A stretch of DNA of 64,000 bases from a virus. Taxonomy: Duplodnaviria; Heunggongvirae; Uroviricota; Caudoviricetes. Location of the stretch: the IMG/VR virus record IMGVR_UViG_3300037851_000307, positions 51,635-115,634 of that record; one strand, written 5' to 3'. The position numbers and the translations under genes were made by a program. Under the pieces are notes generated by a model. It searched no databases, was not told the DNA's origin, and worked only from the letters and a program-made list of their open reading frames with translations. This document shows, piece by piece, positions 40,460-58,697 of this stretch (positions are counted from its first letter, which is position 1; the number at the start of each line of letters is the position of its first letter).

Positions 40460-42070
40460 TTATAAGTTGCCTTTTGAGAACTCGGTCATGATTTGTGGAG
40501 TCGAAGTATCGAAACCAACAACATCAAGCATATTCTTATCAGAAGGATCTGCGATGGTGAAACCATTTGCGCAAGTTCCTACTGTGATAAGTTTAGCTTC
40601 AGGCACCGACATTCCAGAGCGATATTTGTTTAAAGCTTGGAAAGGGTGCATTGAGCCAGCATAAGTTTCATTATCAGTATAGATAGCAAACGTGTCGATA
40701 TGTAACTTTTGTGCTAAAGCCCATTGCATAGGCAACGAACAGTCTGTTCCACCCCATGGAGCTTTTTGCATTGTTTTCAACACATCATCTAAACGTTTAC
40801 GCTTAGAAAGATCAAGTCTGTCTATTCCTGATGAGCCGTAACCAGAAGACGAGAAGTATACAACTTCTGAATTAGGTTCAGCTTTTAAAGTAACCATTGC
40901 CATGGCTCCAGCAGCTTCTGCCGCCGTCAAACCTGTTCCAGCGATTCTTGCTCCAAACATAGAACCTGAGCAATCAAGCGCAAGAAGATGGTTTTTGCCA
41001 GAAGTTTCTACGTTTCCAAAGGAAGTATAGAAAGCTTCATCCAACGCATCTATGATGTTGGTTACTGGTGACCAAGTCAGCGACCCCTTATCGCCTCGCC
41101 CTTGCTTATAAATAGCAAGCGCGTTCAGGATAGTGATGGGGTGAACACGCGATCTCTTGATCTGTTCAGCGTTATTCAGACGCTCAACGACTAGCTTAGT
41201 GTTAGTATCTAGGTTTGATTTCAACAAACCTACAGCAGTCATCTTAGCTAGATTTCTTAAAGTTGCAGTCATAGGCATATTCTGATTAAGAGCTTCCCAT
41301 ACTTCTCTTGAGTTCAAGAGTTCAGTGGGAAGCGCTTCACGAGGTAGCCCATACTTTTGTATCAAAGCAACAGCTTGCTTAGTATCTCCAGCTCCAAGAG
41401 TTTGGATTTCTTCAAAACCTTGAACAAGCGCGTGCTTTGTGGTTACTTCTTTGCCGGCTGCATATCTTAATAAGTCGTTCAATGCTGCATCGTTAGATGA
41501 AGCATGGCAAAGACGTAACACATCGCGGTGAGTAAAGTTGTTTCTGTTGCGGTACTTGATGATGTTCATAGCAACTTTATCAATATCATTTTGAGTATAA
41601 AACTTTGCAACACCATTTCTTAGTCCACGAGACCAACCGCGTAATGCTTGGATATTCTCAGTGAACTGAAATAAATGAGTTCCGATTCTACATACATCGG
41701 TGATAGCTTTATATGCTGCATTCTTTGTGGCTTCATCGCCAAAAGTTGTTGCTAAAGCTAACGCAAAGATTGCAGGGTCATTTTTAGGTGCTCGACCAGC
41801 TACAGAGATTTCAACGATTGTTTTCACAGTTCGCAAACCATCTTGCTTGATGCAATCAATAACAGCTTGCGCGTTGTCTACTGTCATCTTTTTCTCTGAC
41901 GCGTAGTATGAACCACCTTCGTTACCTAAGATAAGAAATCGATTCAGTTTAGAGAAGCTGTCTTGAGCAAAAACAAAACCACCGGCATTATTTTTAACCT
42001 GATCTTTACCTGGAACTTGTTGTGTTTGAGGAGTTGTTTTTGTGTTGAAGTGCTTAGTATAAGACATACT
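40460..42070 (-). CDS. rsr: Ro60/TROVE-domain ribonucleoprotein orthologue (Rsr) with C-terminal vWA (MIDAS DCSGS)
   Basis: 'GGFVF…RFLILGNEGGSYY…DPAIFALALA' matches the Ro60 TROVE signature (RFL.LGSEGGTYY); C-terminal 'LALDCSGSM' vWA MIDAS. Start set at MSYTKHF, which has the SD 'aaaggagaaagtATG'. Confidence 0.85.
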   Translation of the reverse strand, partial: SMSYTKHFNTKTTPQTQQVPGKDQVKNNAGGFVFAQDSFSKLNRFLILGNEGGSYYASEKKMTVDNAQAVIDCIKQDGLRTVKTIVEISVAGRAPKNDPAIFALALATTFGDEATKNAAYKAITDVCRIGTHLFQFTENIQALRGWSRGLRNGVAKFYTQNDIDKVAMNIIKYRNRNNFTHRDVLRLCHASSNDAALNDLLRYAAGKEVTTKHALVQGFEEIQTLGAGDTKQAVALIQKYGLPREALPTELLNSREVWEALNQNMPMTATLRNLAKMTAVGLLKSNLDTNTKLVVERLNNAEQIKRSRVHPITILNALAIYKQGRGDKGSLTWSPVTNIIDALDEAFYTSFGNVETSGKNHLLALDCSGSMFGARIAGTGLTAAEAAGAMAMVTLKAEPNSEVVYFSSSGYGSSGIDRLDLSKRKRLDDVLKTMQKAPWGGTDCSLPMQWALAQKLHIDTFAIYTDNETYAGSMHPFQALNKYRSGMSVPEAKLITVGTCANGFTIADPSDKNMLDVVGFDTSTPQIMTEFSKGNL

Positions 42071-42145
42071 TTCTCCTTTAAAAATAGCGGATAAATTGAT
42101 GACCATGGGGTTTTCGCCAAATGATAACCCATAATCTACGACCCG
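42071..42145 (-). ncRNA. Y-RNA-like module 5 (begins CGGGTCGTAGATTATGGGTTATCA, ends TTATCCGC + T-run)
   Basis: Shares the 5' consensus YGGGTCGWWAGA..TTNGGTTAYCA and the 3' TTATCCRY-Tn with four other units. Confidence 0.4.
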
Positions 42146-44598: not shown

Positions 44599-44862
44599 CT
44601 ATTTATCATCCTGATGCTTATTTATCGATTCGGTTGAAGCACTTTGGTCTGTAAGTATTACAAGTTCTGCAAGCTGATTTTGAAGCTCTATATTTTGTTT
44701 ATTAAGGTCATATATTTCACTGGTTAATATGTTCCATATAACCTCTTGACGCGTATATCTTGCCTTAACACTTGCTTCGTCTGATCGCCCATCTTTGATG
44801 AGCTCAAGTATTAGCTCTACTTCTGGGTTAATAGATTCTAGTAAATCTTTAAGAGTTTTCAT
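44599..44862 (-). CDS. hypothetical protein
   Basis: 87 aa. Confidence 0.45.
   Translation of the reverse strand: MKTLKDLLESINPEVELILELIKDGRSDEASVKARYTRQEVIWNILTSEIYDLNKQNIELQNQLAELVILTDQSASTESINKHQDDK
44625..44634 (-). promoter_or_regulatory. ACCGAATCGA motif instance (inside the 3' end of 44599..44862)
   Basis: Upstream of 43865..44524. Confidence 0.35.
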
Positions 44863-45115
44863 TGTTTGTCTTTATGGCGGGCACTTGTTTACCGCCTAGA
44901 AAGTCTCTAAATAACTCGGAACAACTAGAGCATAAATCTATGTCTTGACTAATGCCGCCAGCAGCACCATCGTAGCCACGAGCCCACATTTCAACTTTTT
45001 TAGCGTGAGTTCCGCCGTTGCCAAAAGGGCCTTCAGCTCTTTCGCCTTGAGCGTCACATCTATCACATATTAAAATTGTTTTAGCCGGAATCGTCTTTGC
45101 GCCCATTGTTGTCAC
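44849..45115 (-). CDS. small Cys-rich protein
   Basis: CDRCDAQG…CSSC. Confidence 0.45.
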   Translation of the reverse strand: MTTMGAKTIPAKTILICDRCDAQGERAEGPFGNGGTHAKKVEMWARGYDGAAGGISQDIDLCSSCSELFRDFLGGKQVPAIKTNNENS

Positions 45116-45320
45116 CTAAAATTATAGAGTCAGCCTTTTCAGACTCAAGCTCGTCAATGCGTTTGTTTAAAAGCTCAATCTCTTTGTTGAGGAAATCAAA
45201 GTTTTTGTTACTCATATCAATCTCCTGATTTAGCTGAGTAACAAATTTTCTCAACGCAGCTTCATTGTTCTCAAAGCGTTCTTTGATCGCTTCAACAAGC
45301 TTAGTGATACCGTCCATCAT
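45081..45320 (-). CDS. small coiled-coil protein
   Basis: 79 aa. Confidence 0.45.
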   Translation of the reverse strand: MMDGITKLVEAIKERFENNEAALRKFVTQLNQEIDMSNKNFDFLNKEIELLNKRIDELESEKADSIILGDNNGRKDDSG

Positions 45321-46780
45321 TATCTTCTTCCTCTAGGTTTTTCAGAGTCAGGAATCTTGATTGTGGTACCTAAGCGCTTGATCGGGTGATCTGCTTGACC
45401 TTGGCGCGAGATGATAAACAGCGTGGTCGGAAACTTAACTCCTGGTGGAACCATCTGCTCAAAGTTAACATCACCATAGCAACCGTCAGTTACAAAGATC
45501 GCAAGATCTGGTCTGCGTTTAGCAATATCTTCAAAAGATTTCGTTAAACATGTGCCGCCAGATTCAACTTTGCTTTTATCTAAACGTTCACCTAGTTTAT
45601 ATTCTTCACTGTAATAGTTTTCAGTGTGGAATAAGTTAAGGCGACATTTTCTGCTACCCGTACGTAAGAAATTATCAACAACCTCTAAGAACTCATTTAA
45701 TTCTTCAGTAGAGATTGAACCTGACGTATCGAGATAGATATTAAGTTTAGGTAAGTCACCAACTTTTGTGCCTGGCGCTTTATTGCCAAAACGTTTTGAC
45801 TTGCGTGTCCAAGTGTGCTTACGCTCGTGACCTGATGCTGACTTTTTAATAGCCAACAATATCATAGATCTGTAATCTAACTCAGACTTACGCGTCTTGA
45901 TTTCTTGTAAAAGATCTTTGATAGAACCTGGAAGATCGTTGTAGTCAAGCTTTTGCTTGATCATCGCACGCTTGATAAGATCTTCTGTGGCTTCAAGCAT
46001 TTCTTTTTCTTCAGCTGCGCCATCCCACATATGCTCATCTAGAGTTTGTGGAGTGCCTTTACCGCCACCTTGTCCACCTTCACCATCGCCTTCTTCGTTA
46101 TCTGGGTCATCAAGGCGCTGTAAAAGTTTTTCGTAGTAGTATTCCATGGTTTGATCTTTTTTCCATGGGGTTTTAGCGTTTGTTTGTGGATCTACGTCAA
46201 AGAAGTCTTTGATGTCGATGCAAAAACCTGGACAGTTTTCATTAGGAAACATTTGTACGCTGCCGTCAGGTAGTTGTTGTGGCTCACAGCGACCGTTAGG
46301 TGCAGTAGAACACTGATCGCAGCCTTCTGGTAAGCCTTTAATATACTGGTTGATCGCCATGTCAGCGCCAACGTTCATAAGCTGACGTTTTCTTGAAGAA
46401 ATCTTCAAGAACGGTACGCGAAATGGATGCTTGTTCGTGATGTGGTTAATCTCGTGAAGTAACACAGCACTTCGCGCTAAATCACCGCGCTCTTGACGCG
46501 TCATACCTGGAATTGACTTAGAGTTGTTAAGTTTATCAACAAAGAACTTTGGATTGATGTACATATCCCAGCGTTTTGCTTCAGTATTAAACATAATACC
46601 GGCTGTTGGAATATAGTGTGAATACATGATATTCAAACACTGAAGAATTGAACCTATGAAAGGCGCTTTCTTTGTTACATTATAAATCGAAGTAGCAAGC
46701 GCTTTTGATTTCGCTTCTACTGGTACGAACTCTTTATCTAAGAGTTCCTTTGTTATGTTCGATCTGCGTCTATCGCTCAC
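45320..46780 (-). CDS. vWA-domain protein with HExxH metallopeptidase motif (partner of the MoxR ATPase)
   Basis: 'LHEINHITNKH' is an HExxH motif; C-terminal 'IYLDTSGSIS' is a vWA MIDAS; sits directly downstream of the AAA+ gene. Confidence 0.7.
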   Translation of the reverse strand: MSDRRRSNITKELLDKEFVPVEAKSKALATSIYNVTKKAPFIGSILQCLNIMYSHYIPTAGIMFNTEAKRWDMYINPKFFVDKLNNSKSIPGMTRQERGDLARSAVLLHEINHITNKHPFRVPFLKISSRKRQLMNVGADMAINQYIKGLPEGCDQCSTAPNGRCEPQQLPDGSVQMFPNENCPGFCIDIKDFFDVDPQTNAKTPWKKDQTMEYYYEKLLQRLDDPDNEEGDGEGGQGGGKGTPQTLDEHMWDGAAEEKEMLEATEDLIKRAMIKQKLDYNDLPGSIKDLLQEIKTRKSELDYRSMILLAIKKSASGHERKHTWTRKSKRFGNKAPGTKVGDLPKLNIYLDTSGSISTEELNEFLEVVDNFLRTGSRKCRLNLFHTENYYSEEYKLGERLDKSKVESGGTCLTKSFEDIAKRRPDLAIFVTDGCYGDVNFEQMVPPGVKFPTTLFIISRQGQADHPIKRLGTTIKIPDSEKPRGRR

Positions 46781-46803
46781 GATTCCCTCCTAATAGGTAT
46801 CAA

Positions 46804-46813
46804 TCGATTCGGT
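46804..46813 (-). promoter_or_regulatory. ACCGAATCGA motif instance
   Basis: About 20 nt upstream of the GTG/ATG of 45320..46780, after a hairpin plus T-run. Confidence 0.45.
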
Positions 46814-46825
46814 GCAGTATAAAGC

Positions 46826-46870
46826 CTCCTTTAGAAAAAATGCGGGCCTAGCAAAAGGAGGGACAAACTA
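46826..46870 (-). terminator. hairpin GCGGGC…GCCCGC + T-run (weak terminator)
   Basis: Downstream of the 46891..48033 stop. Confidence 0.4.
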
Positions 46871-46890
46871 AGCCCGCTGGGGGTGAACTA

Positions 46891-48033
46891 TTAAGTTTCC
46901 GCTTTGTTGCCGTCTACTTTCGTAGCGCGGTTAATGCGGATATTATCTCTGATAATATCAGTCATTTCAGGGTGACGTTTTACAAACTCACGGAAGTAGT
47001 TAAGAACTGCGCCGTTAGATTGCTTAAAGCCACAACCTTTGATGAGATTGATCGCTTGGTCTGAAGGAATAATCTTAGCGACTTCTGCCATCAGATCTTC
47101 GTCGATTTGATTATCTTTACACTTATCTTTTAAGCCACCGTAGTGCTTAATGATTGAATCAACAGTCATAGCGATCATCTCACCTTGGTAGTTGTTTTTA
47201 TCAGATTGTGCTTCAAGACGCTTTAACGCTGCCGGACGATCTTTTAAAAGATCTTCAGCGGTAACCGGAGCTTGATCGTAACAGAACTTGTGGTACTGTA
47301 AACCGATGTCGTTACCTAAGATTGAGATTGCAGTCAATCTATGTAAAGCGCGTGACTTATGAACTCCTGCTCTTTCAGCAGCGTTCATTTTTGACCAAGT
47401 ACGTGGAGAAACGTATTTGCCTTCTGGACCAAGCTCTTTTGGAGTTTTGTAGATCCAAAGACCTGAGTTGATAAAGCGTTGAACTTTGTCATCCCAGTTT
47501 GCAGAATCAGCGTATTCGCTGAATGATAAGTGGTCGAACTCGATTTCGTACTCTTCGAAACGGTCTTTTAAGGCTGCGTCCATGTTGTTAACATCGTACT
47601 CAGAGCCTTCAGGGTTAATACAGCCTGCGATTACCCAACCGTCAGGTAAGGTATATTTGTGAACTTTACGGTCAGTTAAGATCTGCATTAAGCAGTTCAT
47701 TACGCCGGTAGTTCCGCGGTTTGGTTCTTCGAGAAGTAATAAACCTCTACCGCTTGTTGGCCAGAAATCTGGCAGTTCGTGAACTGTTCTACGAACACCA
47801 TTCACTTCGAAAACCTCAGGAAACCCGATTAAGTCAGGTGCTTCCATGTACGCGATACGAAGGTCGATGAACCCGAAAGTTGGGTCTTCTTTCTTCTGTT
47901 TCGCTACCCACTGCTGACATACCTGCGATTTTCCGAGACCTGCTTCACCCGTAAATAATGGGTTAAAGACTTCGTTGATGTCCCTTGCTGCTAACGCAAG
48001 GTCCAATACAACACCAATATTTGCTGCTTTCAC
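46891..48033 (-). CDS. MoxR-family AAA+ ATPase
   Basis: Walker A 'GEAGLGKSQV'; 'LLLEEPNRGTTGVMNCLMQILTDRKV' is the MoxR sensor/ENR-like segment; about 380 aa. Confidence 0.75.
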   Translation of the reverse strand: MKAANIGVVLDLALAARDINEVFNPLFTGEAGLGKSQVCQQWVAKQKKEDPTFGFIDLRIAYMEAPDLIGFPEVFEVNGVRRTVHELPDFWPTSGRGLLLLEEPNRGTTGVMNCLMQILTDRKVHKYTLPDGWVIAGCINPEGSEYDVNNMDAALKDRFEEYEIEFDHLSFSEYADSANWDDKVQRFINSGLWIYKTPKELGPEGKYVSPRTWSKMNAAERAGVHKSRALHRLTAISILGNDIGLQYHKFCYDQAPVTAEDLLKDRPAALKRLEAQSDKNNYQGEMIAMTVDSIIKHYGGLKDKCKDNQIDEDLMAEVAKIIPSDQAINLIKGCGFKQSNGAVLNYFREFVKRHPEMTDIIRDNIRINRATKVDGNKAET

Positions 48034-48688: not shown

Positions 48689-49112
48689 GTAATACTCCGT
48701 CGAAAGATTGTGGAAATATCTTCATCAAATCCTCAAGGAAATGATTATTTTCTTTTGCTCTTTTATATTCTACAATTTTTTGACGAAGTGCTTCAAATTC
48801 TCGGTTTAATTTTGTGTATTTCCAGTACCAGCAGTAATCAGATATTATGGATTTTTCTCCCCTGAAAGCCGAAGCAGTGTCATTTATAACGCAGTGAAAT
48901 CTGCCATCTTTCTTTCGACTTATAGTGACTGTTTTAGTGGGAGAAAAGTAGCCTTGTGAGTCGTTTTGAGTTTGCGGGGTCCACTTTACAATGACCTCAT
49001 CGCTCATAATTCCAGGGTCGGGGAGGGTATTAAACCAGTCGTGGTGCTCGCCCACATTCCACTGTTTTTTAAGCTCTATGAGAGCCGCTCTAATAAGATC
49101 CGCTTTAGTCAT
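48666..49112 (-). CDS. hypothetical protein (start moved to internal Met with SD GGGAAGGA)
   Basis: The ORF-track start at 49235 overlaps ClpP; the Met at 49112 is preceded by GGGAAGGAAC. Confidence 0.45.
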   Translation of the reverse strand: MTKADLIRAALIELKKQWNVGEHHDWFNTLPDPGIMSDEVIVKWTPQTQNDSQGYFSPTKTVTISRKKDGRFHCVINDTASAFRGEKSIISDYCWYWKYTKLNREFEALRQKIVEYKRAKENNHFLEDLMKIFPQSFDGVLLGDDFNE

Positions 49113-49136
49113 GTTCCTTCCCAGGCTTACCCAAGG

Positions 49137-49142
49137 TATAAT
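49137..49142 (+). promoter_or_regulatory. TATAAT in divergent intergenic region (ClpP side)
   Basis: ccaaggTATAATtattattatatcaggggcattATG. Confidence 0.35.
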
Positions 49143-49163
49143 TATTATTATATCAGGGGCATT

Positions 49164-49979
49164 ATGGCAACACAGCAGACAGAACTTAGCGATCAATTGA
49201 TATATGGCATCGATCTTAAGGCACGCCGGATTCATTTCGGGGTTGGTCTAGATCATACAGAAGAGAACCCAGGTATGTTTAGTGGGGCCTCTGTAGAATT
49301 AGCCATTAGGGCGATCCATAAGATGATCCAAGAGGCTCCTAATAAGCCAATTGAGATACACATGAACTCTTATGGCGGCGATGCTTATTCTATGATGTAC
49401 TTAATGGATGTTATCCTATCTAGCCCATGTCAATTTAAGTTCTTTGGCGGTGGAGCTATAATGAGTAGCGCTACTTGGATAATGGCTGTATGCGATGAGC
49501 GATGGCTGTACCCTAATGCAACTATCCTTATTCATGATGGTTATGTAGAAGGTACTGTAAGAAACACCACAGATCACCAAATTGATGCTAAGGAAAATAA
49601 GCGCCTTCAAGATAGACTTAATACTATTTATGCTGAAAACTCTAGAATGCCAAAAGAGTTCTGGGATGATATAGTTCAACGTGACTTATACTTAACTGCG
49701 GAAGAAGCCATAATGTTTGGTTTAGCAGATAAGCTTGTTGAGTACAAGAAGCGCGGAAACTTACGTAAATCTCGTCAAGGCATCTTAGCAAAGCAACCAG
49801 AGTCTAAAGAGTTTAAGAAGCTAATTAAGAATGTATACGACAGGATCGAAAGGGTTTCTGTACCAAACATTTCATTGAATGTAGCTAAAAAAGAAGAATC
49901 TGATCCTAAGGTGATTGTAGACGATACTCCAGTTGTTCAACCTGAAGTTCCTGTAGTTGAGCCAGAGAAGAAAGATTAG
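49164..49979 (+). CDS. ClpP-like serine protease
   Basis: 'IHMNSYGGDAYSMMYLMDV…GGGAIMSSATWIM…ILIHDGY' matches the ClpP Ser/His motif pattern; start moved to MATQQ… at 49164. Confidence 0.7.
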   Translation: MATQQTELSDQLIYGIDLKARRIHFGVGLDHTEENPGMFSGASVELAIRAIHKMIQEAPNKPIEIHMNSYGGDAYSMMYLMDVILSSPCQFKFFGGGAIMSSATWIMAVCDERWLYPNATILIHDGYVEGTVRNTTDHQIDAKENKRLQDRLNTIYAENSRMPKEFWDDIVQRDLYLTAEEAIMFGLADKLVEYKKRGNLRKSRQGILAKQPESKEFKKLIKNVYDRIERVSVPNISLNVAKKEESDPKVIVDDTPVVQPEVPVVEPEKKD

Positions 49980-50446
49980 TAGTCAGACTCTTTGCATTGT
50001 AAGCAGGTAACGCCAATACTTCTCCACATATCTACAACAGATTGCCGATCGTCGACTGCAAAATCGACTTCATAGTATGGCTTTACCATTTCGTTATATA
50101 TGTCTTGCTTTACGATATAGTCATCTCTGTGGTCATGTGACCCACGCATATGAAGAGTGTAGTCTACGTCTTTATTGATGTATTGATCTAGCCATTTAGT
50201 TGTTACTCTTTTAGCATTGTCTGCTCTACCAGTTATAAATATGATCTTATAGCCTGCAGAGTTATAAAGATGAACTAAGTTTTGACACCACACATGAGGT
50301 GGATCATTTATACTCATCTCGTTTATTTCAGTCCAATCTTTTACCTGAGAATGATTTTCAAAGAAGTGCAATCGTGCTGTATTATCAGATAGGGTTCCGT
50401 CAATATCTACGATAATAGCTTTCTGTTTCATGAAAGCATTGTACAA
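49976..50446 (-). CDS. HAD-superfamily phosphatase
   Basis: Motif I 'IIVDIDGTLSD'; motif III-like 'FAVDDR'. Confidence 0.6.
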   Translation of the reverse strand: MYNAFMKQKAIIVDIDGTLSDNTARLHFFENHSQVKDWTEINEMSINDPPHVWCQNLVHLYNSAGYKIIFITGRADNAKRVTTKWLDQYINKDVDYTLHMRGSHDHRDDYIVKQDIYNEMVKPYYEVDFAVDDRQSVVDMWRSIGVTCLQCKESDY

Positions 50447-52225: not shown

Positions 52226-52655
52226 CCAATAGCTCCACTTCTATTGCGTACTCTACAATTGCGTCTTTTAATTCTAAAACAGTTTCGCAACCAGCCTCTA
52301 TAATAAAGCCATTAACTTCTTTCATTTGAGCTTCGCCATATTTGTTGGCGTTTTCTTTTATCTCGATTAAAAGCAAATTGTCTGCATCATCGAAACGAAA
52401 GTCATATACGTTTGACCTTCCAGCAATATGAGCTTTACCTACATCTATGAAGAAAGTTATATTTACATTCATGAACCCATTGTCATAATTGGTTGCAAGA
52501 ATATTTTTAAGTTCTCCCATAAAACCTAGCTTATCTGAAGCTGATGCCCATGTCTTGTTTTTCGCTGAAACCTTTGTTGAACTTCTCAGTGTGCTCAACC
52601 ATTTCTTTAATAACCTCTCCCATTGTTTTATCGTGAAGCATGCTTCGCACAACAA
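52218..52655 (-). CDS. hypothetical protein
   Basis: 145 aa; its 5' end overlaps the AAA ATPase gene, so the true start may be internal. Confidence 0.4.
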   Translation of the reverse strand: MLCEACFTIKQWERLLKKWLSTLRSSTKVSAKNKTWASASDKLGFMGELKNILATNYDNGFMNVNITFFIDVGKAHIAGRSNVYDFRFDDADNLLLIEIKENANKYGEAQMKEVNGFIIEAGCETVLELKDAIVEYAIEVELLGG

Positions 52656-53565
52656 TCTCTTCTAAGTGAGCAATACTGAAATCCTTGATCTTAGGATTAT
52701 TGAGAGCCTCTTTTTCTTCTTCAGTGAGGTCACGTTTAGCGATGAACGCAGTTAACGCCAACTTTTCCTGATACGTAGGAGGATCAAGTTTCATCATGAG
52801 GTCAAAGCGACCCGGGCGATCAGCTAGAGAAGCTAATAGGTTCTCTGGGTGATTTGTAGTGGCCACGATGAAAGTTGGCAAAGAGAACGTCACGCCAACA
52901 CCATCTAATAGGTTTAATAAACCAGAATCAACTGGTGCAGCCATTCCGTTGTTTTCTCTTTCTGTTCCGCCGATGTCTTCCATGATGAAGATGAGGCGAG
53001 TACATTTAGAGTCATACTCACTATTTACAGAAAGGAAGTGAGATATAGTATCGGCATCAATCGCTGATGTCGGCCAAACCATAACTACGGTACCTGGATC
53101 TTCTTTAACAAACTCGTTACAAATCTTAGCGATAGCAGAAGACTTACCCATACCCGGAGAAGAATAGATTAAAACTGATCTTTTCTTCATTCGCTTTAAT
53201 TTTTCATATATGTGGAGCTTTGAGTAGAAAAGCTTAGCTTCTTTGGTGATTCTTTCGGTGCTTGTAACAGAAGACAGAAGCTCCCTATCTCTAAGCTCAA
53301 GGGTTCTAAGCTTAACACCGACTGAAGTTTGCTCTAACATAAAAATGCCAGGCTCAATAATATTCTTCTCTTCATCTTCTTTAGGCTTCATATATTCAAA
53401 CTGAACAATTTTGCCTTCATGTTGGAAACAAAGATCGCTTTCTGGAAGCTCATTTTGTTTCCCGCTGATAAATTCATCTAGAGAAGTTGCTTTAATAAGC
53501 TTAAAAAAGCCTTCTTGAGGCTTTTTAACTTCTTCAGTTTTTTCTACTTCTTCTTTAGATGACAT
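52531..53565 (-). CDS. AAA+ ATPase
   Basis: Walker A 'SSPGMGKSS'; Walker B 'LIFIMEDIGG'; sensor 1 'VATTNH'; Arg finger 'RPGRFD'. Confidence 0.65.
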   Translation of the reverse strand: MSSKEEVEKTEEVKKPQEGFFKLIKATSLDEFISGKQNELPESDLCFQHEGKIVQFEYMKPKEDEEKNIIEPGIFMLEQTSVGVKLRTLELRDRELLSSVTSTERITKEAKLFYSKLHIYEKLKRMKKRSVLIYSSPGMGKSSAIAKICNEFVKEDPGTVVMVWPTSAIDADTISHFLSVNSEYDSKCTRLIFIMEDIGGTERENNGMAAPVDSGLLNLLDGVGVTFSLPTFIVATTNHPENLLASLADRPGRFDLMMKLDPPTYQEKLALTAFIAKRDLTEEEKEALNNPKIKDFSIAHLEEIVVRSMLHDKTMGEVIKEMVEHTEKFNKGFSEKQDMGISFR

Positions 53566-54074: not shown

Positions 54075-54153
54075 TGGTTGCGGAGCCTGGAGTCGCACCA
54101 AGTACACCTTCTAGCTTATGAAACTAGTGAGCCGCAGTTGCTCGATCCCCGCA
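54075..54153 (-). tRNA. tRNA-Met-like (anticodon CAT), atypical 3-nt 8-10 connector and T-loop TGCGACT
   Basis: Acceptor TGCGGGG/CTCCGCA with A-CCA; D-arm GAGC-AACTGCG-GCTC; anticodon arm CTAGT-TTCATAA-GCTAG. Confidence 0.5.
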
Positions 54154-54177
54154 CGTTATAGTTATAAATCGAATCTG

Positions 54178-54858
54178 TTAAAACGGAATGTCTTCATCGT
54201 CGTCTTTGTCGATGTACTCGTTTTTGGTCAGTGTGGTTTTTAGTACTATTGTACCATCGTCTTGTTTTTCAGCTGATAGAATTTTTTCTTTTTCTACAAC
54301 AGTTCCACCAGCTTTTTTGATTAGCATGTCAACAAGGTTATTTTTGACATGCTGCTGTACAACCTTATTCATTTCTTCTTTTAGCATGGTTTCAATTAAG
54401 CGAGACACGGTATGACTATCGATGCACCGCTTAACTTGATTCCTAATATTTGCCTGTATAGCTTCTCTGATCTTTCGTTGTTCCTCAGGGTTGCCAATGA
54501 ACGTTTCTGGCGCTAACTGATTAGCTATAATGAACTCTTTTAGAGGTTGGCCGATCAAACCGTCCATAACTGATCCAGTTTTAATCTCCCAATCGCTCCA
54601 TTTTGTTTCAAAGCCTAAAGCAGACCATACGATCTTTTTCATATTCTGCGAAGCTTCTTTTAAGACATTTGCTTTAGTGTCCTCTAACATAGCTTCAAAC
54701 GAAATATTTCTCATTGACTCAAGATCTACATTTAAAACAACGGCATCCGCTACATCATCATCTGATACTGGAATAAGCTTTAAAGTACCCCAATCTTCTT
54801 TGATTTCGTAAAGTTTGTTCTCGAATTTTGCTAATTTTGCCTTTGGATCTAAAGCCAT
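54178..54858 (-). CDS. hypothetical protein ending in SSB-like acidic tip (…DKDDDEDIPF)
   Basis: C-terminal DDDEDIPF copies the bacterial SSB C-terminal tip (DDDIPF); start moved to MALDPK, which has the SD GGGGGTAAT. Confidence 0.55.
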   Translation of the reverse strand: MALDPKAKLAKFENKLYEIKEDWGTLKLIPVSDDDVADAVVLNVDLESMRNISFEAMLEDTKANVLKEASQNMKKIVWSALGFETKWSDWEIKTGSVMDGLIGQPLKEFIIANQLAPETFIGNPEEQRKIREAIQANIRNQVKRCIDSHTVSRLIETMLKEEMNKVVQQHVKNNLVDMLIKKAGGTVVEKEKILSAEKQDDGTIVLKTTLTKNEYIDKDDDEDIPF

Positions 54859-54879
54859 ATTACCCCCGATATACACTCA

Positions 54880-54889
54880 TCGAATCGGT
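54880..54889 (-). promoter_or_regulatory. ACCGATTCGA motif instance (preceded by CTTTTTAC)
   Basis: About 20 nt upstream of the 54178..54858 start. Confidence 0.45.
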
Positions 54890-54900
54890 AAAGTAAAAAG

Positions 54901-54975
54901 TGGCGTAGCACCTAGGAGTCGAACCTAGATTTCATGGTTTTGGAGGCCAGACGAATGCCGTTATCTTAGTGCTAC
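54901..54975 (-). tRNA. tRNA-like element (canonical acceptor/T-arm/CCA but no foldable anticodon arm); possible pseudo-tRNA
   Basis: GTAGCAC…CTAGG TTCGACT CCTAG GTGCTAC G CCA; the middle region will not form a 5-bp/7-nt anticodon arm. Confidence 0.35.
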
Positions 54976-54977
54976 AT

Positions 54978-55049
54978 GGCGCGGATAAGGGAATCGAACC
55001 CCTGACATTCGGTAGACAGCCGAAGGTTTTGCCACTAAACTATATCTGC
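54978..55049 (-). tRNA. tRNA-Asp (anticodon GTC)
   Basis: D-arm GTTT-AGTGGCA-AAAC; anticodon arm TTCGG-CTGTCTA-CCGAA; T-arm AGGGG-TTCGATT-CCCTT. Confidence 0.75.
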
Positions 55050-55050
55050 G

Positions 55051-55126
55051 TGGGGTGATTGACGGGAGTCTAACCCAGTACCTTCGCTTTCACAGAGCGA
55101 CGTGCAGACCTTACACTACAACCACC
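55051..55126 (-). tRNA. tRNA-His (anticodon GTG) with G-1
   Basis: Extra 5' G pairing with discriminator C; anticodon arm TCGCT-CTGTGAA-AGCGA; 3' CCA. Confidence 0.75.
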
Positions 55127-55143
55127 ATATAAAAATCAACTTT

Positions 55144-55222
55144 AATGTTCCATATCCAGATGGGGATATTAAACATTAGTCAAAAACTTTTATGTTTAAT
55201 CCCGACGGGGGAAATTAAACAT
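55144..55222 (-). repeat. two tandem similar hairpins (AATGTT…GGGGATATTAAACATT and ATGTTTAATCCCGACGGGGGAAATTAAACAT) inside the tRNA cluster
   Basis: Imperfect direct repeat of hairpin-forming units, each followed by a T-rich run on the minus strand. Confidence 0.5.
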
Positions 55223-55236
55223 AAGTAAATAAAACT

Positions 55237-55311
55237 TGGTGCCCAATGGAAGATTCGAACTCCCCAAACCGCGTTACAAAGGCGGCGTTATTCCCACTTA
55301 ACTAATCGGGC
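55237..55311 (-). tRNA. tRNA-Thr (anticodon TGT)
   Basis: Acceptor GCCCGAT/ATTGGGC; D-arm GTTA-AGTGGGAA-TAAC; anticodon loop TTTGTAA; T-arm GGGAG-TTCGAAT-CTTCC; A-CCA. Confidence 0.75.
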
Positions 55312-55312
55312 A

Positions 55313-55404
55313 TGGTCTCACGGGCAGGACTCGAACCTACATTTTGCGCCAATCTAGCGCGTCTGGTGTATAAGGCCAGGGTTTTGCCATTAAACTACCG
55401 TGAG
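55313..55404 (-). tRNA. class-II-like tRNA (92 nt, 22-nt variable hairpin) with apparent anticodon TAT in loop CTTATAC; identity unresolved
   Basis: Acceptor CTCACGG/CCGTGAG; D-arm GTTT-AATGGCA-AAAC; anticodon stem CTGG(C)/(A)CCAG; variable arm GCGC-TAGATTG-GCGC; T-arm GTAGG-TTCGAGT-CCTGC; A-CCA. Confidence 0.5.
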
Positions 55405-55474
55405 TGGTTGCGGACAGGGTAGTTGCAACCCTTATATTAGGCTTATGAGACCCATATAGCGACTTGCGCCCGCA
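55405..55474 (-). tRNA. tRNA-Met/Ile2-like (anticodon CAT) with reduced D-arm
   Basis: Anticodon arm TGGGT-CTCATAA-GCCTA; T-arm AGGGT-TGCAACT-ACCCT; acceptor TGCGGGC/GTCCGCA; only 70 nt. Confidence 0.45.
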
Positions 55475-55490
55475 ATCGTACTTAAAATTT

Positions 55491-55565
55491 TGGTAGACGA
55501 TATAGGAGCTGCACCTATGACCTTCGCTTTGTAAGAGCGCTGCTCTACTGCTGAGCTAATCGTCT
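55491..55565 (-). tRNA. tRNA-Val (anticodon TAC)
   Basis: Acceptor AGACGAT/ATCGTCT; D-arm GCTC-AGCAGTA-GAGC; anticodon loop CTTACAA; T-loop TGCAGCT; A-CCA. Its 5' end overlaps the stop of 55545..56093. Confidence 0.7.
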
Positions 55566-56093
55566 ATGATTCATTACTGCTTTAATTGCTTCTATCCATT
55601 CTTCATGTGAAAAATTATCTGCTCTAGATATGTTGCATTTTCCACAACACGGAACTACATTTTCTAATGTATATCCATATGAATTATTTTTTCTATCTAA
55701 ATTATGACCAGTTTCTTGGCATAAAGAAGAATTGCAATAAAAACATTCTTTTATTAAATTTTTATAGCTATCAAAGTCTATACTCCATTCTAAACTTCTT
55801 TCATTGGCTTTTCTTTGACCATATTTAAATCTATTAAATAGATCAGTTCTATTGATGAAACTTTTATTCTTAGCTTCTTCTCTTTGCCAATAAATATTTC
55901 GTTTCCAGCTATTTTTGCACTCCCTACATGACGAATATCTTCCGTCTTTTGTTGTTTTGCTTTTCGCAAATTTATCTAAATCTTTTTCAATCTTACATTT
56001 ACTACATATTTTGGTACACATAATCCTTTTATACCAAGATAAAAATGGTACCTGGTGCTGGATTCGAACCAACCTTACTCGCCTATCAAGCAA
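55545..56093 (-). CDS. HNH endonuclease inside the tRNA cluster
   Basis: 'GHNLDRKNNSYGYTLENVVPCCGKCN' plus Cys clusters; paralog of 37238..37684. Confidence 0.7.
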   Translation of the reverse strand: MLDRRVRLVRIQHQVPFLSWYKRIMCTKICSKCKIEKDLDKFAKSKTTKDGRYSSCRECKNSWKRNIYWQREEAKNKSFINRTDLFNRFKYGQRKANERSLEWSIDFDSYKNLIKECFYCNSSLCQETGHNLDRKNNSYGYTLENVVPCCGKCNISRADNFSHEEWIEAIKAVMNHRRLAQQ

Positions 56094-56119
56094 GCTTTCT
56101 TCCTACTGAAATAACCAGG
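56045..56119 (-). tRNA. tRNA-Ile (anticodon GAT)
   Basis: D-arm TTTC-AGTAGGAA-GAAA; anticodon arm CTTGC-TTGATAG-GCGAG; T-arm GTTGG-TTCGAAT-CCAGC; A-CCA. Confidence 0.75.
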
Positions 56120-56120
56120 C

Positions 56121-56197
56121 ATGGTCTGCAAGGTCAGAATCGAACTGACTTCCCCTCGGTTCCAAACCGAGAAAGCACCCATATGCTCCTCTCGCAG
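56121..56197 (-). tRNA. tRNA-Pro (anticodon TGG)
   Basis: Anticodon arm CTCGG-TTTGGAA-CCGAG (perfect); T-arm GTCAG-TTCGATT-CTGAC; A-CCA. Confidence 0.8.
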
Positions 56198-56210
56198 ATA
56201 AACTAAAATT

Positions 56211-56287
56211 TGGTACCGGTGAAAGGAATTGAACCTTCAAACACTTGATTCTAAGTCAAGCTGCTTTGCCTGTTTGCATACACCGGC
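56211..56287 (-). tRNA. tRNA with anticodon TAG (Leu by anticodon) but class-I architecture (5-nt variable loop)
   Basis: Anticodon arm CTTGA-CTTAGAA-TCAAG (perfect); T-arm GAAGG-TTCAATT-CCTTT; acceptor GCCGGTG/CACCGGT; A-CCA. Confidence 0.6.
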
Positions 56288-56303
56288 ACGTTAAAACTAA
56301 AAT

Positions 56304-56380
56304 TGGAGCGCGTAGTCGGATTCGAACCGACACTCCATGATTGGAAGTCACGTATGCTAGCCGTTGAACATTACACGCGC
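56304..56380 (-). tRNA. tRNA-Gly (anticodon TCC)
   Basis: Anticodon arm CGTGA-CTTCCAA-TCATG; T-arm GTCGG-TTCGAAT-CCGAC; T-CCA. Confidence 0.75.
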
Positions 56381-56382
56381 AC

Positions 56383-56458
56383 TGGATAGGGATGCTGGAT
56401 TTGAACCAGCGTCATGAGGGTCAAAGCCTCAGGTCCTAGGCCACTAGACGAATCCCCA
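56383..56458 (-). tRNA. tRNA-Gln (anticodon TTG)
   Basis: D-arm GTCT-AGTGGCCTA-GGAC; anticodon arm TGAGG-CTTTGAC-CCTCA; T-arm GCTGG-TTCAAAT-CCAGC; T-CCA. Confidence 0.75.
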
Positions 56459-56463
56459 TCGAT

Positions 56464-56667
56464 TTAAAAACCTCTCTTATATTCAAATTCATAATCAGTT
56501 TGATCTAAGATCTCCTTGATTACTTTTGCCTCGCTTTCGCATTTTTCGACATCTTGGTATTCTCTATTGTCATTGACCCAACGCATCATATCTGTGTATA
56601 TGCTAAATAAAATGTCAGCATTGTCTTTGCTAATAAAAACTTTATTCTCTTTATTGAAATTAAACAT
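56464..56667 (-). CDS. hypothetical small protein
   Basis: 67 aa. Confidence 0.4.
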   Translation of the reverse strand: MFNFNKENKVFISKDNADILFSIYTDMMRWVNDNREYQDVEKCESEAKVIKEILDQTDYEFEYKRGF

Positions 56668-56683
56668 AAATCTCCTTAAAATT

Positions 56684-56760
56684 GGTGGACCGCAAGGGAA
56701 TCGAACCCTTCACAGGTGCATTGCAAATGCGCCTCGCCTGCCCTTGGTACATGGCAGCCC
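56684..56760 (-). tRNA. tRNA-Ala-like (anticodon TGC, G3:U70) with atypical D-region
   Basis: Acceptor GGGCTGC/GCGGTCC with a G3·T70 wobble; anticodon loop TTTGCAA; T-arm AAGGG-TTCGATT-CCCTT; A-CCA. The D-arm cannot be paired cleanly. Confidence 0.5.
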
Positions 56761-57028
56761 AAAAAGCTCTTTGCATCGTGGGAATAAAGCCACTTCTATT
56801 GGTGACGATACGCAGAGCGGTTTTTCTTATGTAATTATGTTAGCCGTTGGATTGTTAGAGCGCCGGCTGCGCTATCGTATGTGACCACTGCGGATCAATA
56901 CCCGTAAGTGAACGCACTCCAGCACCGGCAGATTGAATGCCTGTGAGACCTAGAATGTTTATTTTGTTCATTACGTTTTTCATATATACCTAATATACCA
57001 TGTTTTGGTATTAAAACTTAAAAATTTG

Positions 57029-57262
57029 TTATTTTTTTAGTAAAATTTGCTCTATCTCTTGTTCCATAGCTGATGTGAGCAAATCAAAAGCCTCACCGGC
57101 TTCTTCTAATGTTTCATAACGCCAAACTACTAAATTAGTGCCTTGCTTTATTATGTTAAATTCAGTCATATCATAAGGTGGCTGATTGTCTATAACAAAA
57201 AAGAAATCGTTTGCAAGTAGGACTTTATATTTGTTTTTATAAAGATCACCTTTTTTCAGCAT
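57029..57262 (-). CDS. hypothetical small protein
   Basis: 77 aa; start lies in a junction motif. Confidence 0.4.
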   Translation of the reverse strand: MLKKGDLYKNKYKVLLANDFFFVIDNQPPYDMTEFNIIKQGTNLVVWRYETLEEAGEAFDLLTSAMEQEIEQILLKK

Positions 57263-57281
57263 TATCCACCTAGAATTATCT
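57260..57281 (-). promoter_or_regulatory. gene-junction motif variant AGATAATTCTAGGTGGATAATG (instance)
   Basis: Encodes -KIILGG of the upstream ORF and the start of the downstream ORF. Confidence 0.45.
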
Positions 57282-57483
57282 TGTCTGCATGGTCATCTAC
57301 TATCTTTTTCCAGTTTCTGTTAAGAAGACCAACCAACCACATTCTTTGTCCTTTTGACGTCATGTAAAGACTGTCATCGTGTATCCAACGAACTTCATAT
57401 TCGCTATATGTACCTTCATGATAACCAGGTATATGGCGTATGAACTTTATATATAGATATGGACTCCAATCATATTCTTCCAT
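57262..57483 (-). CDS. small protein ending -KIILGG
   Basis: 73 aa. Confidence 0.45.
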   Translation of the reverse strand: MEEYDWSPYLYIKFIRHIPGYHEGTYSEYEVRWIHDDSLYMTSKGQRMWLVGLLNRNWKKIVDDHADKIILGG

Positions 57484-57860
57484 TACTCTTCCAACAAAAT
57501 TTTATCGATTCGGTCGATTTTTTCTTGAGCTCTTCTTTCCATAATATCAAACATTTTATCTACATTGTCGCTTTTTAATGCTTTGCGCCCCCAATGGCAT
57601 TTCATAACAATTGCTTTTTCTTCTTTATCAACTAGATAGTACCTATATTCAGAGCGATGAGCATCATACATCTCAATATGCTTACCATTGACAGTACATA
57701 TGCCTCGCTTACCATAAGAGACGCATATCATTTGGTAATAATCGTTTTCTGCAAAAACAGAAGCATGCTTATGGTTTTTAAACCTTTGAATTGCAAAATT
57801 ATCTTCATCAACAACGTTTAATGTCCAAAAACTAGTTATTGTGTTGTTATCAACGCTCAT
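57483..57860 (-). CDS. hypothetical protein
   Basis: 125 aa. Confidence 0.45.
   Translation of the reverse strand: MSVDNNTITSFWTLNVVDEDNFAIQRFKNHKHASVFAENDYYQMICVSYGKRGICTVNGKHIEMYDAHRSEYRYYLVDKEEKAIVMKCHWGRKALKSDNVDKMFDIMERRAQEKIDRIDKILLEE
57505..57514 (-). promoter_or_regulatory. ACCGAATCGA motif instance
   Basis: About 25 nt upstream of the 57262..57483 start. Confidence 0.4.
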
Positions 57861-58089
57861 CTTCTCCCCCTAAAATAATCTTCTCTGCTTTTTCAACTAC
57901 GGTTTTATAGACCCTTCGAGCTTTACGCACTGCAGCACCTACAGATCTTTCACCTTGGCCATATCTCTTACCGGTATGAACGCAGAAAACACCCCAGTAG
58001 AAGTTTCTAAACTCATGATATCCTTTTACCTTAAAGTGGTACTCCCAAGCTTCAGTTTTCTTAAGATCTTCTAATAAATCGTCACTCAT
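57850..58089 (-). CDS. small protein ending -KIILGGEDER
   Basis: 79 aa. Confidence 0.45.
   Translation of the reverse strand: MSDDLLEDLKKTEAWEYHFKVKGYHEFRNFYWGVFCVHTGKRYGQGERSVGAAVRKARRVYKTVVEKAEKIILGGEDER
57858..57880 (-). promoter_or_regulatory. gene-junction motif (instance)
   Basis: AGATTATTTTAGGGGGAGAAGATG. Confidence 0.45.
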
Positions 58090-58441: not shown

Positions 58442-58697
58442 ACTGTTTCCAAAGCAGTTCTCGTGCCTTTTTAGCTTCTTCTGTTAATGGTACGTTTTCT
58501 TTCAACTCAGTCATTAAATCAGGATACTTAGGAGAGAATTCTCTAAAGAACATCAGTATATTTTCTGAGTTGTACTTTGCAAAAAGCTTTATCGCTGTAA
58601 TTTGCTCATCATACGACATGCTTTTTAAAGCTTCAACCATCTGTTGTTCTGTGATTGCTTTATTTTTACACTTTTCATAAAAATCACTCAATGTCAT
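58422..58697 (-). CDS. hypothetical protein
   Basis: 91 aa. Confidence 0.4.
   Translation of the reverse strand: MTLSDFYEKCKNKAITEQQMVEALKSMSYDEQITAIKLFAKYNSENILMFFREFSPKYPDLMTELKENVPLTEEAKKARELLWKQYETQTY

Follow-up and report, generated by a model that had tools for sequence, protein, structure and literature searches.

The stretch of viral DNA analysed here (64,000 nucleotides, hereafter the window) carries two adjoining minus-strand genes, one coding for an AAA+ ATPase and the other for a protein, here called the adaptor, that joins an N-terminal zincin-like domain to a C-terminal vWA domain (Table 1). Both open reading frames were found exactly where an initial annotation had placed them, and they are separated by a gap of 110 nt. 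Each gene starts with GTG behind a strong Shine-Dalgarno sequence (AAGGAGG upstream of position 48033 for the ATPase; AGGAGG at 46791-46786 for the adaptor), and the homologues of each protein begin at the same residue. The pair is part of a minus-strand arm that also holds tRNAs, a Ro60 gene and a gene for a PNKP-type phosphatase.

Table 1. Coordinates of the gene pair and of its features in the window
Feature	Position	Strand	Remarks
AAA+ ATPase gene	46891..48033	-	380 aa; placed by sequence in the AAA_5/MoxR assemblage; N4 gp24 homologue
Walker A, GEAGLGKS (residues 29-36)	47926..47949	-	Present in 120/120 close homologues
Walker B and next motif, LLLLEEPNR (residues 98-106)	47716..47742	-	LLLLEE = residues 98-103
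Sensor-1 N140 (INPEG) to arginine finger R158 (ALKDRF)	47560..47616	-	Both invariant in 22 diverse members
SPR motif, S209-P210-R211	47401..47409	-	Candidate sensor-2 arginine in lid; P210 and R211 invariant
Terminator-like hairpin	46832..46877	-	13 nt past the ATPase stop
Adaptor gene (N-terminal zincin-like domain, C-terminal vWA)	45320..46780	-	486 aa; N4 gp25 homologue
Metallopeptidase-like domain (about residues 20-225)	46106..46723	-	From alignment, PDB profile matches and secondary structure
HEINHITNKH = HExxHxxxxH (H109, E110, H113, H118)	46427..46456	-	121-122/123 aligned sequences
Helix NVGADMAINQ with N136, D140, N144, Q145	46346..46375	-	D140 candidate third zinc ligand
Cys-rich insert (C154, C157, C165, C183, C187)	46220..46321	-	Clade-specific
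vWA domain (about residues 346-475)	45356..45745	-	DUF2201; complete MIDAS
MIDAS D351-x-S353-x-S355 (DTSGS, 351-355)	45716-45730	-
MIDAS T410 (GGT)	45551-45553	-
MIDAS D432 (TDG)	45485-45487	-

The Walker A and sensor regions claimed for the ATPase are indeed present, and all ATPase motifs could be located and are conserved among homologues. The Walker A sequence is identical in 117 of the 120 close homologues and reads GDAGLGKS in the other three, while G32 and K35 are invariant in an alignment of 22 diverse members. In Walker B the first acidic residue is Glu, replacing Asp; E103 is conserved in at least 90% of the diverse alignment, the distant members of which show DE at this place. The SPR motif is a candidate sensor 2, by comparison with the 'SPR' motif of MoxR.

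The relationships of the ATPase emerge at the level of its family. The protein matches phrog_1297 in PHROG (E 1.6e-40), but by itself it reaches E<=0.01 with none of the Pfam or NCBIfam models, neither AAA_3 (MoxR proper) nor AAA_5 giving a significant match; its affinity to MoxR and AAA_5 is visible only through the family profile and, less clearly, the fold search. When the 22 family members were compared with Pfam, 17 matched AAA_5, 8 AAA_3 and 9 bpMoxR. The family profile retrieved Midasin, McrB, NorQ, CobS, CbbQ and MoxR (2r44) from the PDB, with E-values of 1e-9 to 4e-7, and NorQ, CobS and CbbQ are the closest characterised ATPases by this measure. These relatives were detected with a profile of the diverse alignment (A4), which was needed after a narrow profile (A2) had returned chance matches only; single-sequence phmmer searches of the PDB were uninformative for both the ATPase and the adaptor. 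Because the ATPase lacks a Pfam match of its own, yet members of its family and the family profile do match, we place it, on sequence grounds, as a divergent branch of the AAA_5/MoxR assemblage that appears nearer to AAA_5 than to MoxR proper. The ATPase also matches weakly (E 5.4e-5) the 'porphyrin biosynthesis' family phrog_249, presumably a CobS-type family.

The adaptor had been singled out for combining an HEINH motif (residues 109-113) with a C-terminal vWA MIDAS containing DTSGS, and this combination is borne out by Pfam matches above the cut-offs and by residue conservation. DUF2201_N (PF13203, 'putative metallopeptidase domain') scores 25.5 bits against a cut-off of 23.2 over residues 104-147 only (44 residues), and DUF2201 (PF09967, vWA-like) scores 34.9 bits against 26.4 over residues 348-466. 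NCBIfam has no match for the adaptor or the ATPase. Homology extends over the whole adaptor, since its match to phrog_1314 (E 1e-46) spans the full length; the name of that PHROG family, 'HNH endonuclease', is a mislabel, as no HNH domain was found and Pfam gives DUF2201_N plus DUF2201. On all four counts (two Pfam domains, the motifs and the ATPase neighbour) the adaptor belongs to the DUF2201_N + DUF2201 (N4 gp25) family, which comprises 2,331 clusters at 50% identity. Proteins of this composition bear the JGI name 'predicted metal-dependent peptidase'.

Conservation was gauged on a varied set of 122 full-length relatives, whose identity to the query is about 30-58%. Residues H109, E110, H113, H118 and D140 of the N-terminal domain and D351, S353, S355, T410 and D432 of the vWA domain are kept in 121-123 of the 123 aligned sequences, which lifts the adaptor motifs beyond chance. 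The three histidines are invariant in two further alignments (A3 and A5), cultured-phage homologues included, and E110 is invariant in A3 and conserved in at least 90% of A5. In the helix that follows, D140 is found in 123/123 sequences, N144 in 121/123 and N136 in 117/123. H118 and D140 are two invariant candidates for the third zinc ligand.

The initial annotation had made its protease claim depend on an alignment of the HExxH motif to a peptidase fold, and the context of the motif proved peptidase-like. In the AF2 model of the adaptor (pLDDT 80.9), strands at 50-53, 60-65 and 70-75 precede a helix with HExxH (95-115) and a helix with D140 (129-144). A profile of the N-terminal domain had zincins as 11 of its 12 best sequence matches in the PDB, at marginal E-values (0.005-0.5); among its matches were the M48/minigluzincin zincins BepA, HtpX, Ste24p, selecase MJ1213 and an M48 peptidase, aligned on the beta-strand and the HExxH helix. 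Unlike these zincins, the adaptor has the motif HExxHxxxxH and an invariant Asp on the next helix. Both fold searches with the full-length model were swamped by matches to the vWA domain. We regard the N-terminal domain as a zincin-like putative metallopeptidase with a possible affinity to M48/minigluzincins.

Other parts of the adaptor are more variable or less well modelled. The Cys-rich insert is a possible structural zinc site; C154, C157 and C183 are invariant within the close clade, and the inserted Cys columns (157, 178, 183) are filled in only 14-17 of the 123 aligned sequences. Two conserved linkers were modelled with low confidence, one acidic and Gly-rich (225-241) and the other basic (318-341), the latter with W324 and R330 invariant. 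A second HExxH (HERKH, 318-322) within the basic linker is an unconserved chance match.

Between the two genes lies a hairpin with an 11-bp stem (46877-46867 paired with 46852-46842), a 14-nt loop (UUGUCCCUCCUUUU) and a tail (AUUUUUUCUA). Its CCUCC-type loop is the sole case among the 85 hairpins of the window. Of 30 close relatives, 22-24 keep a hairpin with a covarying stem at this place, while control windows show one in 0-3.4% of cases; this comparison was made directly with the control windows, a MAFFT alignment of the hairpins being out of register. In the window, the loop pairs perfectly (8 nt) with the downstream Shine-Dalgarno sequence, a pairing that is not general among relatives. 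The hairpin probably lowers read-through from the ATPase gene into the adaptor gene and may in this way set the ratio between the two products. Reduced read-through would leave the ATPase in excess over the adaptor, in keeping with a ring that binds a single adaptor; the ring-to-adaptor ratio of such complexes is 6:1.

Linkage of the two genes, proposed as a check in the initial annotation, holds widely. The genes adjoin in 47 of 53 IMG/VR loci by HMM, and locus L055 adds a 48th pair via Pfam, so that at least 48 of the 53 viral contigs carry it. The pair is also found in four unrelated cultured lineages (N4-like phages, a Yersinia jumbo phage, cyanophage S-TIM54 and Atu_ph07). Neighbourhood clustering revealed no third gene conserved with the pair across lineages. 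The clade of the window is uncultured, with contigs of up to about 178 kb, and the window pair is at most 35% identical to its counterparts in cultured phages; a DNA-level search against deposited phages gave no match, and the JWDelta gp25 homologue, used as query, found no relatives in the genome-contig collection.

N4 gp24 (AAA ATPase) and gp25 (vWFA, pfam13203) are homologues of the pair; both belong to the 14 core genes of N4-like phages, and in N4 they are transcribed in the middle phase (PMC4193335). Together with their Schitoviridae orthologues they represent the same two proteins in the same gene order as in the window. The N4-type adaptor has the same DUF2201_N + DUF2201 architecture (in the JWDelta homologue, PF13203 with E 6.5e-54 and PF09967 with E 1.1e-34), and the HExxHxxxxH, Asp and MIDAS residues are invariant in N4-type and window adaptors alike. 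Divergence is nevertheless deep: the vWA domains are about 32% identical, over the C-terminal third only, and the ATPases about 25%; the window adaptor exceeds N4 gp25 by about 100 aa and carries the Cys-rich insert and the acidic/Gly linker in addition; and Walker B has EE in the window ATPase and DE in N4 gp24. The phages differ as well, the window coming from a large uncultured phage whose capsid protein resembles that of SPO1 (about 31% identity) and the N4 type being a 70-kb podovirus. [quoted passage not shown] The window pair is consequently a divergent new member of an already described module.

Related machines that couple an AAA_5/MoxR ring to a MIDAS-vWA partner are CbbQ-CbbO, NorQ-NorD, RavA-ViaA, CobS-CobT and Midasin. 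Their tasks are Rubisco remodelling, metal-cofactor insertion or the release of ribosome assembly factors. We know of no peptidase domain in the vWA partners of the CbbQ, NorQ, RavA, CobS and Midasin systems, and a protease-coupled MoxR-vWA system would be, to our knowledge, the first known example. The MoxR and vWA core is shared with the vWA-MoxR-VMAP ternary conflict systems of multicellular bacteria, in which the vWA protein sometimes carries a fused peptidase domain and many such domains are catalytically inactive (Kaur et al. 2020; PMC7159879). In contrast, the window pair is phage-encoded, has an intact peptidase motif and is without a conserved third component. PADLOC defence models gave nothing for the adaptor and one chance match for the ATPase (E 0.02).

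By analogy with these systems, we think it probable that the module, as a homologue of N4 gp24/gp25, consists of an AAA+ ring and a vWA/zincin adaptor that remodel and cleave a target. The divergent AAA_5/MoxR-class ATPase would presumably assemble as a hexameric ring, onto which the vWA adaptor would dock as in CbbQ-CbbO, NorQ-NorD, RavA-ViaA and Midasin. The MIDAS metal would then grip an acidic residue on a specific target protein, ATP hydrolysis would pull or remodel the target, and the attached metallopeptidase domain would cut it. We infer the formation of the complex, its stoichiometry, the proteolysis and the order of these events; the domain identities, the strict conservation of catalytic and metal residues and the gene linkage are observed directly. 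The 'protease-coupled remodeller' suggested in the initial annotation is supported, yet is not new, because the homologous jumbo-phage pair, a MoxR-vWA pair with an N-terminal metallopeptidase, has already been described with the same chaperone-plus-protease logic and assigned to virion assembly (Iyer et al. 2021; PMC7824862).

Such a machine could be devoted to virion morphogenesis, with head or tail proteins as the clients of its chaperone and processing activities. This is the published jumbo-phage proposal, drawn by analogy with the Acidianus two-tailed virus, which requires a MoxR-vWA pair for tail development (Iyer et al. 2021; PMC7824862). The pair follows three virion structural genes in Yersinia phage fHe-Yen9-04 and lies between Hsp20 and virion structural genes in S-TIM54. 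Furthermore, the pair is regularly accompanied in the window clade by a ClpP-family gene with matches to PHROG 'head maturation protease' families, and no clear prohead protease was found between the portal and capsid genes of the window. An ORF in the structural module (8574..10091) had been labelled head maturation protease (phrog_1028, E 2e-9), but an SLT transglycosylase domain makes up its C-terminal half; the remaining ORFs between portal and capsid genes had no PHROG matches, and no dedicated prohead protease could be confidently identified in the module. With the label withdrawn, we no longer argue that this phage has a prohead protease of its own. Against morphogenesis, about 20 kb separate the pair from the closest structural gene identified, the plus-strand tail-fibre-like ORF at 21491-25855, and about 32 kb separate it from the gene for the major capsid protein. 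The pair lies on the strand opposite to these genes, in the company of tRNAs, RNA-repair genes and small genes of early/middle type. In N4 the homologues are transcribed in the middle phase and lie among nucleotide-metabolism genes, and across lineages the pair is not accompanied by any co-conserved structural gene. Position in the window and timing in N4 thus do not particularly support the virion-assembly assignment, and we consider it rather unlikely. We lean slightly towards a target that is acted on ahead of virion assembly or independently of it, for example a host protein or a phage non-structural protein. More specifically, and as a tentative proposal only, the module would be, instead of a virion-assembly chaperone, an ATP-driven, MIDAS-targeted, site-specific protease that serves host takeover or counter-defence in the early-to-middle phase; the conserved anti-Shine-Dalgarno-like hairpin would set the ring-to-adaptor ratio, and in this clade the module may cooperate with the neighbouring ClpP-like protease.

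Two further readings dispense with cleavage of a client. The pair could be a chaperone for insertion or maturation of metal cofactors, of the NorQ-NorD, CobS-CobT, CoxD-CoxE or BchI-BchD type, with an HExxH domain that binds or delivers metal. The profile proximity to NorQ, CobS and CbbQ and the phrog_249 match point this way, as do the redox and nucleotide-enzyme neighbours in N4-like phages and Atu_ph07 (thioredoxin/glutaredoxin, dCTP deaminase and thymidylate synthase). The invariant Glu of HExxH is, however, the hallmark of a catalytic general base and not of a metal carrier, the N-domain profile matches are all peptidases, and no candidate client metalloenzyme is co-conserved; we judge this function very improbable. 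The HExxH domain might alternatively be non-proteolytic towards clients of a pure MoxR-vWA chaperone, acting for example in adaptor self-cleavage within the linkers or as a structural module. The two conserved low-confidence linkers could serve self-cleavage or docking, and vWA-fused peptidase domains are often inactive in conflict systems (PMC7159879); in contrast to those domains, the adaptor has kept a complete catalytic motif, conserved to about 100% among the 122 diverse relatives, and we judge such a role very improbable.

Other genes of the window deserve comment. The initial annotation had seen 'heavy investment in protein/RNP remodelling' in the company of a Ro60 (40460..42106, TROVE+vWA_Ro60), a ClpP-like protease (a ClpP-family protease in 48966..49979) and a third AAA ATPase (52531..53565, a classical AAA protein). 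All three genes are there, and the remark is borne out in part: the ClpP gene often neighbours the pair in the clade, but no functional link to Ro60 or to the third AAA protein was found.

A core family in N4-like phages, the gp24/gp25-type pair is met again in cyanophages, in jumbo phages and in a large clade of uncultured phages. The strict purifying selection on all catalytic residues makes it almost certain that the module has an important task. We found no experimental report in the literature on any gp24/gp25-type family member, and identification of the substrate would give a function to a widespread phage core module. The window contributes a deep-branching clade and evidence from genomic context on the published hypothesis of virion assembly. 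Its third contribution is the conserved RNA hairpin, which points to unequal synthesis of ATPase and adaptor.

The PNKP-type phosphatase and Ro60 in the window had also raised the idea of a link to RNA repair, which neighbourhood clustering and the literature did not support. RnlA adjoins the pair in Atu_ph07, and an RNA ligase 2 lies near the ATPase of Av-05.

The two neighbouring reading frames that the initial annotation had described as a MoxR-type ATPase and a vWA protein carrying an HExxH motif were both recovered on the minus strand with the boundaries it had proposed (see table), and the GTG start of each is preceded by a strong Shine-Dalgarno sequence and agrees with the N-termini of homologues. 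The ATPase is an AAA_5/MoxR-class protein with an intact catalytic set, composed of Walker A (GEAGLGKS), Walker B (LLLLEE), sensor-1 N140, the arginine finger R158 and SPR. Among 22 family members reaching down to ~15% identity, residues G32, K35, D67, N140, R158, P210 and R211 were invariant and G34, G70, P72 and E103 at least 90% conserved. The window ATPase taken alone matched no Pfam or NCBIfam model and was assigned to phrog_1297 ("ATPase"; E 1.6e-40). A database of 5.8 billion proteins held 769 relatives of the ATPase and 851 of its partner, here called the adaptor, the top 120 being in both cases 55-87% identical to the query. AF2 models reached pLDDT 79.6 and pTM 0.63 for the ATPase and pLDDT 80.9 and pTM 0.69 for the adaptor.

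The adaptor combines an intact MIDAS vWA domain with an intact zincin-type motif. Residues 348-466 match Pfam DUF2201 (vWA-like; 34.9 bits, cut-off 26.4) and residues 104-147 match DUF2201_N ("putative metallopeptidase domain"; 25.5 bits, cut-off 23.2), while phrog_1314 matches the full length (E 1e-46) and an exhaustive search of cluster representatives returned 2,331 clusters at E<=1e-3. The predicted HEINH motif lies at residues 109-113, and the MIDAS is complete (D351-T-S353-G-S355, T410 and D432). When aligned with 122 diverse full-length representatives, H109, E110, H113, H118, D140 and the five MIDAS residues were kept in 121-123 of the 123 sequences; since H118 is conserved too, the motif reads HExxHxxxxH. 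Conservation of N144, D248 and H250 was only slightly lower in this alignment, and alignments with cultured-phage homologues among their members likewise showed the HExxHxxxxH, D140 and MIDAS residues as invariant or almost invariant. The modelled N-domain has a topology of three beta strands, a helix bearing HExxH and a helix bearing N136, D140 and N144. Searched against the PDB, its profile gave HExxH zincins as 11 of the 12 best sequences (selecase MJ1213, BepA, HtpX, an M48 peptidase and Ste24p among them), at E 0.005-0.5 only, all aligning on the strand and the HExxH helix. The Pfam match, the model topology, the invariance of the motif and these marginal profile matches together suggest a metallopeptidase-like N-domain.

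The name "HNH endonuclease" carried by phrog_1314 is a mislabel for DUF2201_N+DUF2201 proteins, in which no HNH domain is detectable. Many RefSeq phage records of such proteins bear the same label (e.g., NC_042116, NC_023556 and NC_042013), which looks like misannotation propagated, apparently, via this PHROG. A Cys-rich insert also lies inside the peptidase-like domain (C154, C157, C165, C183 and C187). It does not vary within the close clade of nearest relatives, its inserted cysteine columns being filled in just 14-17 of the 123 aligned sequences, and may be a structural zinc site; C165 of the window protein seems to take the place of the clade's usual Cys at the F178 column.

Co-conservation of the two genes was borne out in 47 of 53 IMG/VR loci and in four cultured lineages. 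The loci were gathered by the adaptor, and the ATPase was scored by HMM when it lay no more than 4 kb away in the adaptor's orientation; in about half of the 47 it lies within ~130 bp, and in three loci (L049-L051) the gene order is reversed. Among the six loci missed by the HMM, L055 has an AAA_5 ATPase upstream by Pfam, an arrangement that L054 and L056-L058 probably share on their near-identical adaptor scores; L052, whose sequence extends just ~600 nt beyond the adaptor gene on the upstream side, was left out of judgement. The pair adjoins in Achromobacter phage JWDelta (N4-like; the two genes are described in its record as similar to N4 gp24 and gp25), Yersinia jumbo phage fHe-Yen9-04, cyanophage S-TIM54 and Agrobacterium phage Atu_ph07. 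For JWDelta, fHe-Yen9-04 and S-TIM54 the adaptor architecture is confirmed by Pfam. In Escherichia phage Av-05 the ATPase occurs with no adaptor nearby. In neighbourhood clustering, ATPase and adaptor were the sole families common to 10 lineages; the two genes are tightly linked, without a third partner. Within the window's clade, 29 loci have a ClpP-family gene near the pair, and two other lineages each add a single such locus.

N4-like phages share 14 core genes, of which gp24 and gp25 are two; in N4 itself both are transcribed in the middle phase (PMC4193335). Iyer et al. (PMC7824862) proposed that the jumbo-phage pair takes part in virion assembly and in proteolytic processing during it, and pointed to Acidianus two-tailed virus, whose tails need a MoxR-vWA system to develop; the genes they named, ASV44729.1 and ASV44728.2, are the neighbouring Atu_ph07 genes matched by tblastn from the window. 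Our literature search turned up no experimental work on a member of any gp24/gp25-type pair. The suggestion of a protease-coupled remodeller is supported and had already been published in substance, and the window pair adds a divergent new member to a phage module that is known but experimentally uncharacterised.

By analogy with CbbQ-CbbO, NorQ-NorD, RavA-ViaA and Midasin, the adaptor would dock on a hexameric ATPase ring, and its MIDAS would bind an acidic residue of a client that would be remodelled through ATP hydrolysis and then cut by the adaptor's peptidase domain. We find this succession of docking, capture, remodelling and cleavage reasonably probable, and within it we lean slightly towards a client other than a virion protein. 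That the pair is dedicated to virion morphogenesis, in line with the published proposal, appears rather unlikely. The genes for terminase, portal, major capsid protein and tail occupy the plus-strand half of the window (1-31 kb), and the pair sits in the minus-strand half amid many small ORFs, Ro60, the PNKP-type phosphatase, the ClpP-family gene, the classical AAA protein and the tRNA genes. This context weakens the virion-maturation hypothesis, and no more than that. No prohead protease was confidently identified in the structural module. A 505-aa head-module protein is less likely to be the prohead protease than an ejected or internal virion protein, given its C-terminal SLT domain, and none of the five other ORFs scanned in the portal-to-capsid interval matched a PHROG. 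The pair might also serve as a metal-cofactor insertion system, or its HExxH domain might be non-proteolytic or self-processing; we judge both quite improbable.

Coordinates of features in the window
Feature	Coordinates	Strand	Basis or detail
505-aa head-module protein	8574..10091	+	weak N-terminal 'head maturation protease' PHROG match E 2e-9; C-terminal SLT lytic transglycosylase E 8.2e-5
Ro60 orthologue	40460..42106	-	TROVE E 9.9e-47; vWA_Ro60 E 4.9e-59
88-aa ORF, two genes downstream of adaptor	44849..45115	-	CxxC...CxxC spacing (CDRCDAQGE...CSSCSELF)
Adaptor (486 aa)	45320..46780	-	
Cys-rich insert of adaptor	46220..46321	-	residues 154-187
Hairpin element	46832..46877	-	stem-loop 46877-46842
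ATPase (380 aa)	46891..48033	-	
ClpP-family protease gene	48966..49979	+, opposite to neighbours	PF00574 E 5.6e-23
PNKP-type HAD phosphatase	49976..50446	-	E 5.4e-36
Classical AAA module protein	52531..53565	-	PF00004 E 3.2e-7, after ~120-aa N-terminal region
15-tRNA cluster	54075..59372	both	ARAGORN; minus (12): Met, Trp, Asp, His, Thr, Ile-tat, Val, Ile-gat, Pro, Leu, Gly, Gln; plus (3): Lys-ctt, Lys-ttt, Glu

The window derives from an uncultured phage and has no DNA-level match to deposited phages; its capsid protein shares ~31% identity with SPO1-like capsid proteins, and its relatives lie on contigs of up to ~178 kb. Domain matches bear out the Ro60, ClpP-like protease and third AAA ATPase reported initially, and the local order AAA, ClpP, ATPase, adaptor is retained in relatives with ATPases 66% and 87% identical to that of the window. 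The ClpP-family gene probably starts further downstream than the listed TTG; initiation from an ATG near 49164 would give ~271 aa, comparable to the 269-aa genes called in two related loci (L005 and L060). Because its product also matches PHROG 'head maturation protease' families, it may be a host-directed or a prohead protease. The AAA protein, whose position near ClpP is retained in relatives (L005), resembles the anti-phage ATPases IetA/IteA weakly (PADLOC E 2.8e-6; NCBIfam E 2.3e-4, far below cut-off). Ro60 and the PNKP-type phosphatase are RNA-repair or RNA-quality-control genes in the pair's arm, and RNA ligases are encoded close to the homologues in Atu_ph07 and Av-05; no systematic link of the pair to RNA ligases or RNA repair was found. 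Rfam confirmed 12 of the 15 tRNA genes at gathering score and detected no Y RNA or other non-tRNA family at that score anywhere in the window. The 88-aa ORF is a possible zinc ribbon by its cysteine spacing, without Pfam match or conservation across lineages.

A conserved, terminator-like hairpin following the ATPase gene constitutes a new detail of this module. It begins 13 nt past the stop, with an 11-bp stem, a 14-nt loop (UUGUCCCUCCUUUU) and a tail (AUUUUUUCUA), and was missed by the terminator scan owing to its long loop; it has no Rfam family match. The loop motif (CCUCC / UCCCCUUUG) is pyrimidine-rich and resembles the 16S anti-Shine-Dalgarno sequence, and no other of the 85 hairpins in the 64-kb window has a CCUCC-type loop. 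Related loci (L005-L036, L044 and L045) carry a hairpin 6-41 nt past the ATPase stop with an entirely different stem and a similarly pyrimidine-rich loop, kept there even where ATPase and adaptor are set apart by 250-1250 bp of intervening ORFs. In a direct control, a strong hairpin followed the ATPase stop in 24 of 30 close-clade loci versus 60 of 1,746 random windows, and the loop motif was present in 22 of the 30 versus none of the 1,746. The stems covary, with 23 distinct arms among 24 hairpins and 4-5 pair types at each stem position. The window loop has perfect 8-nt complementarity to the adaptor's own Shine-Dalgarno, a pairing that is not general across related loci. On the simplest reading, the hairpin acts as a leaky intrinsic terminator, so that less adaptor than ATPase is made.
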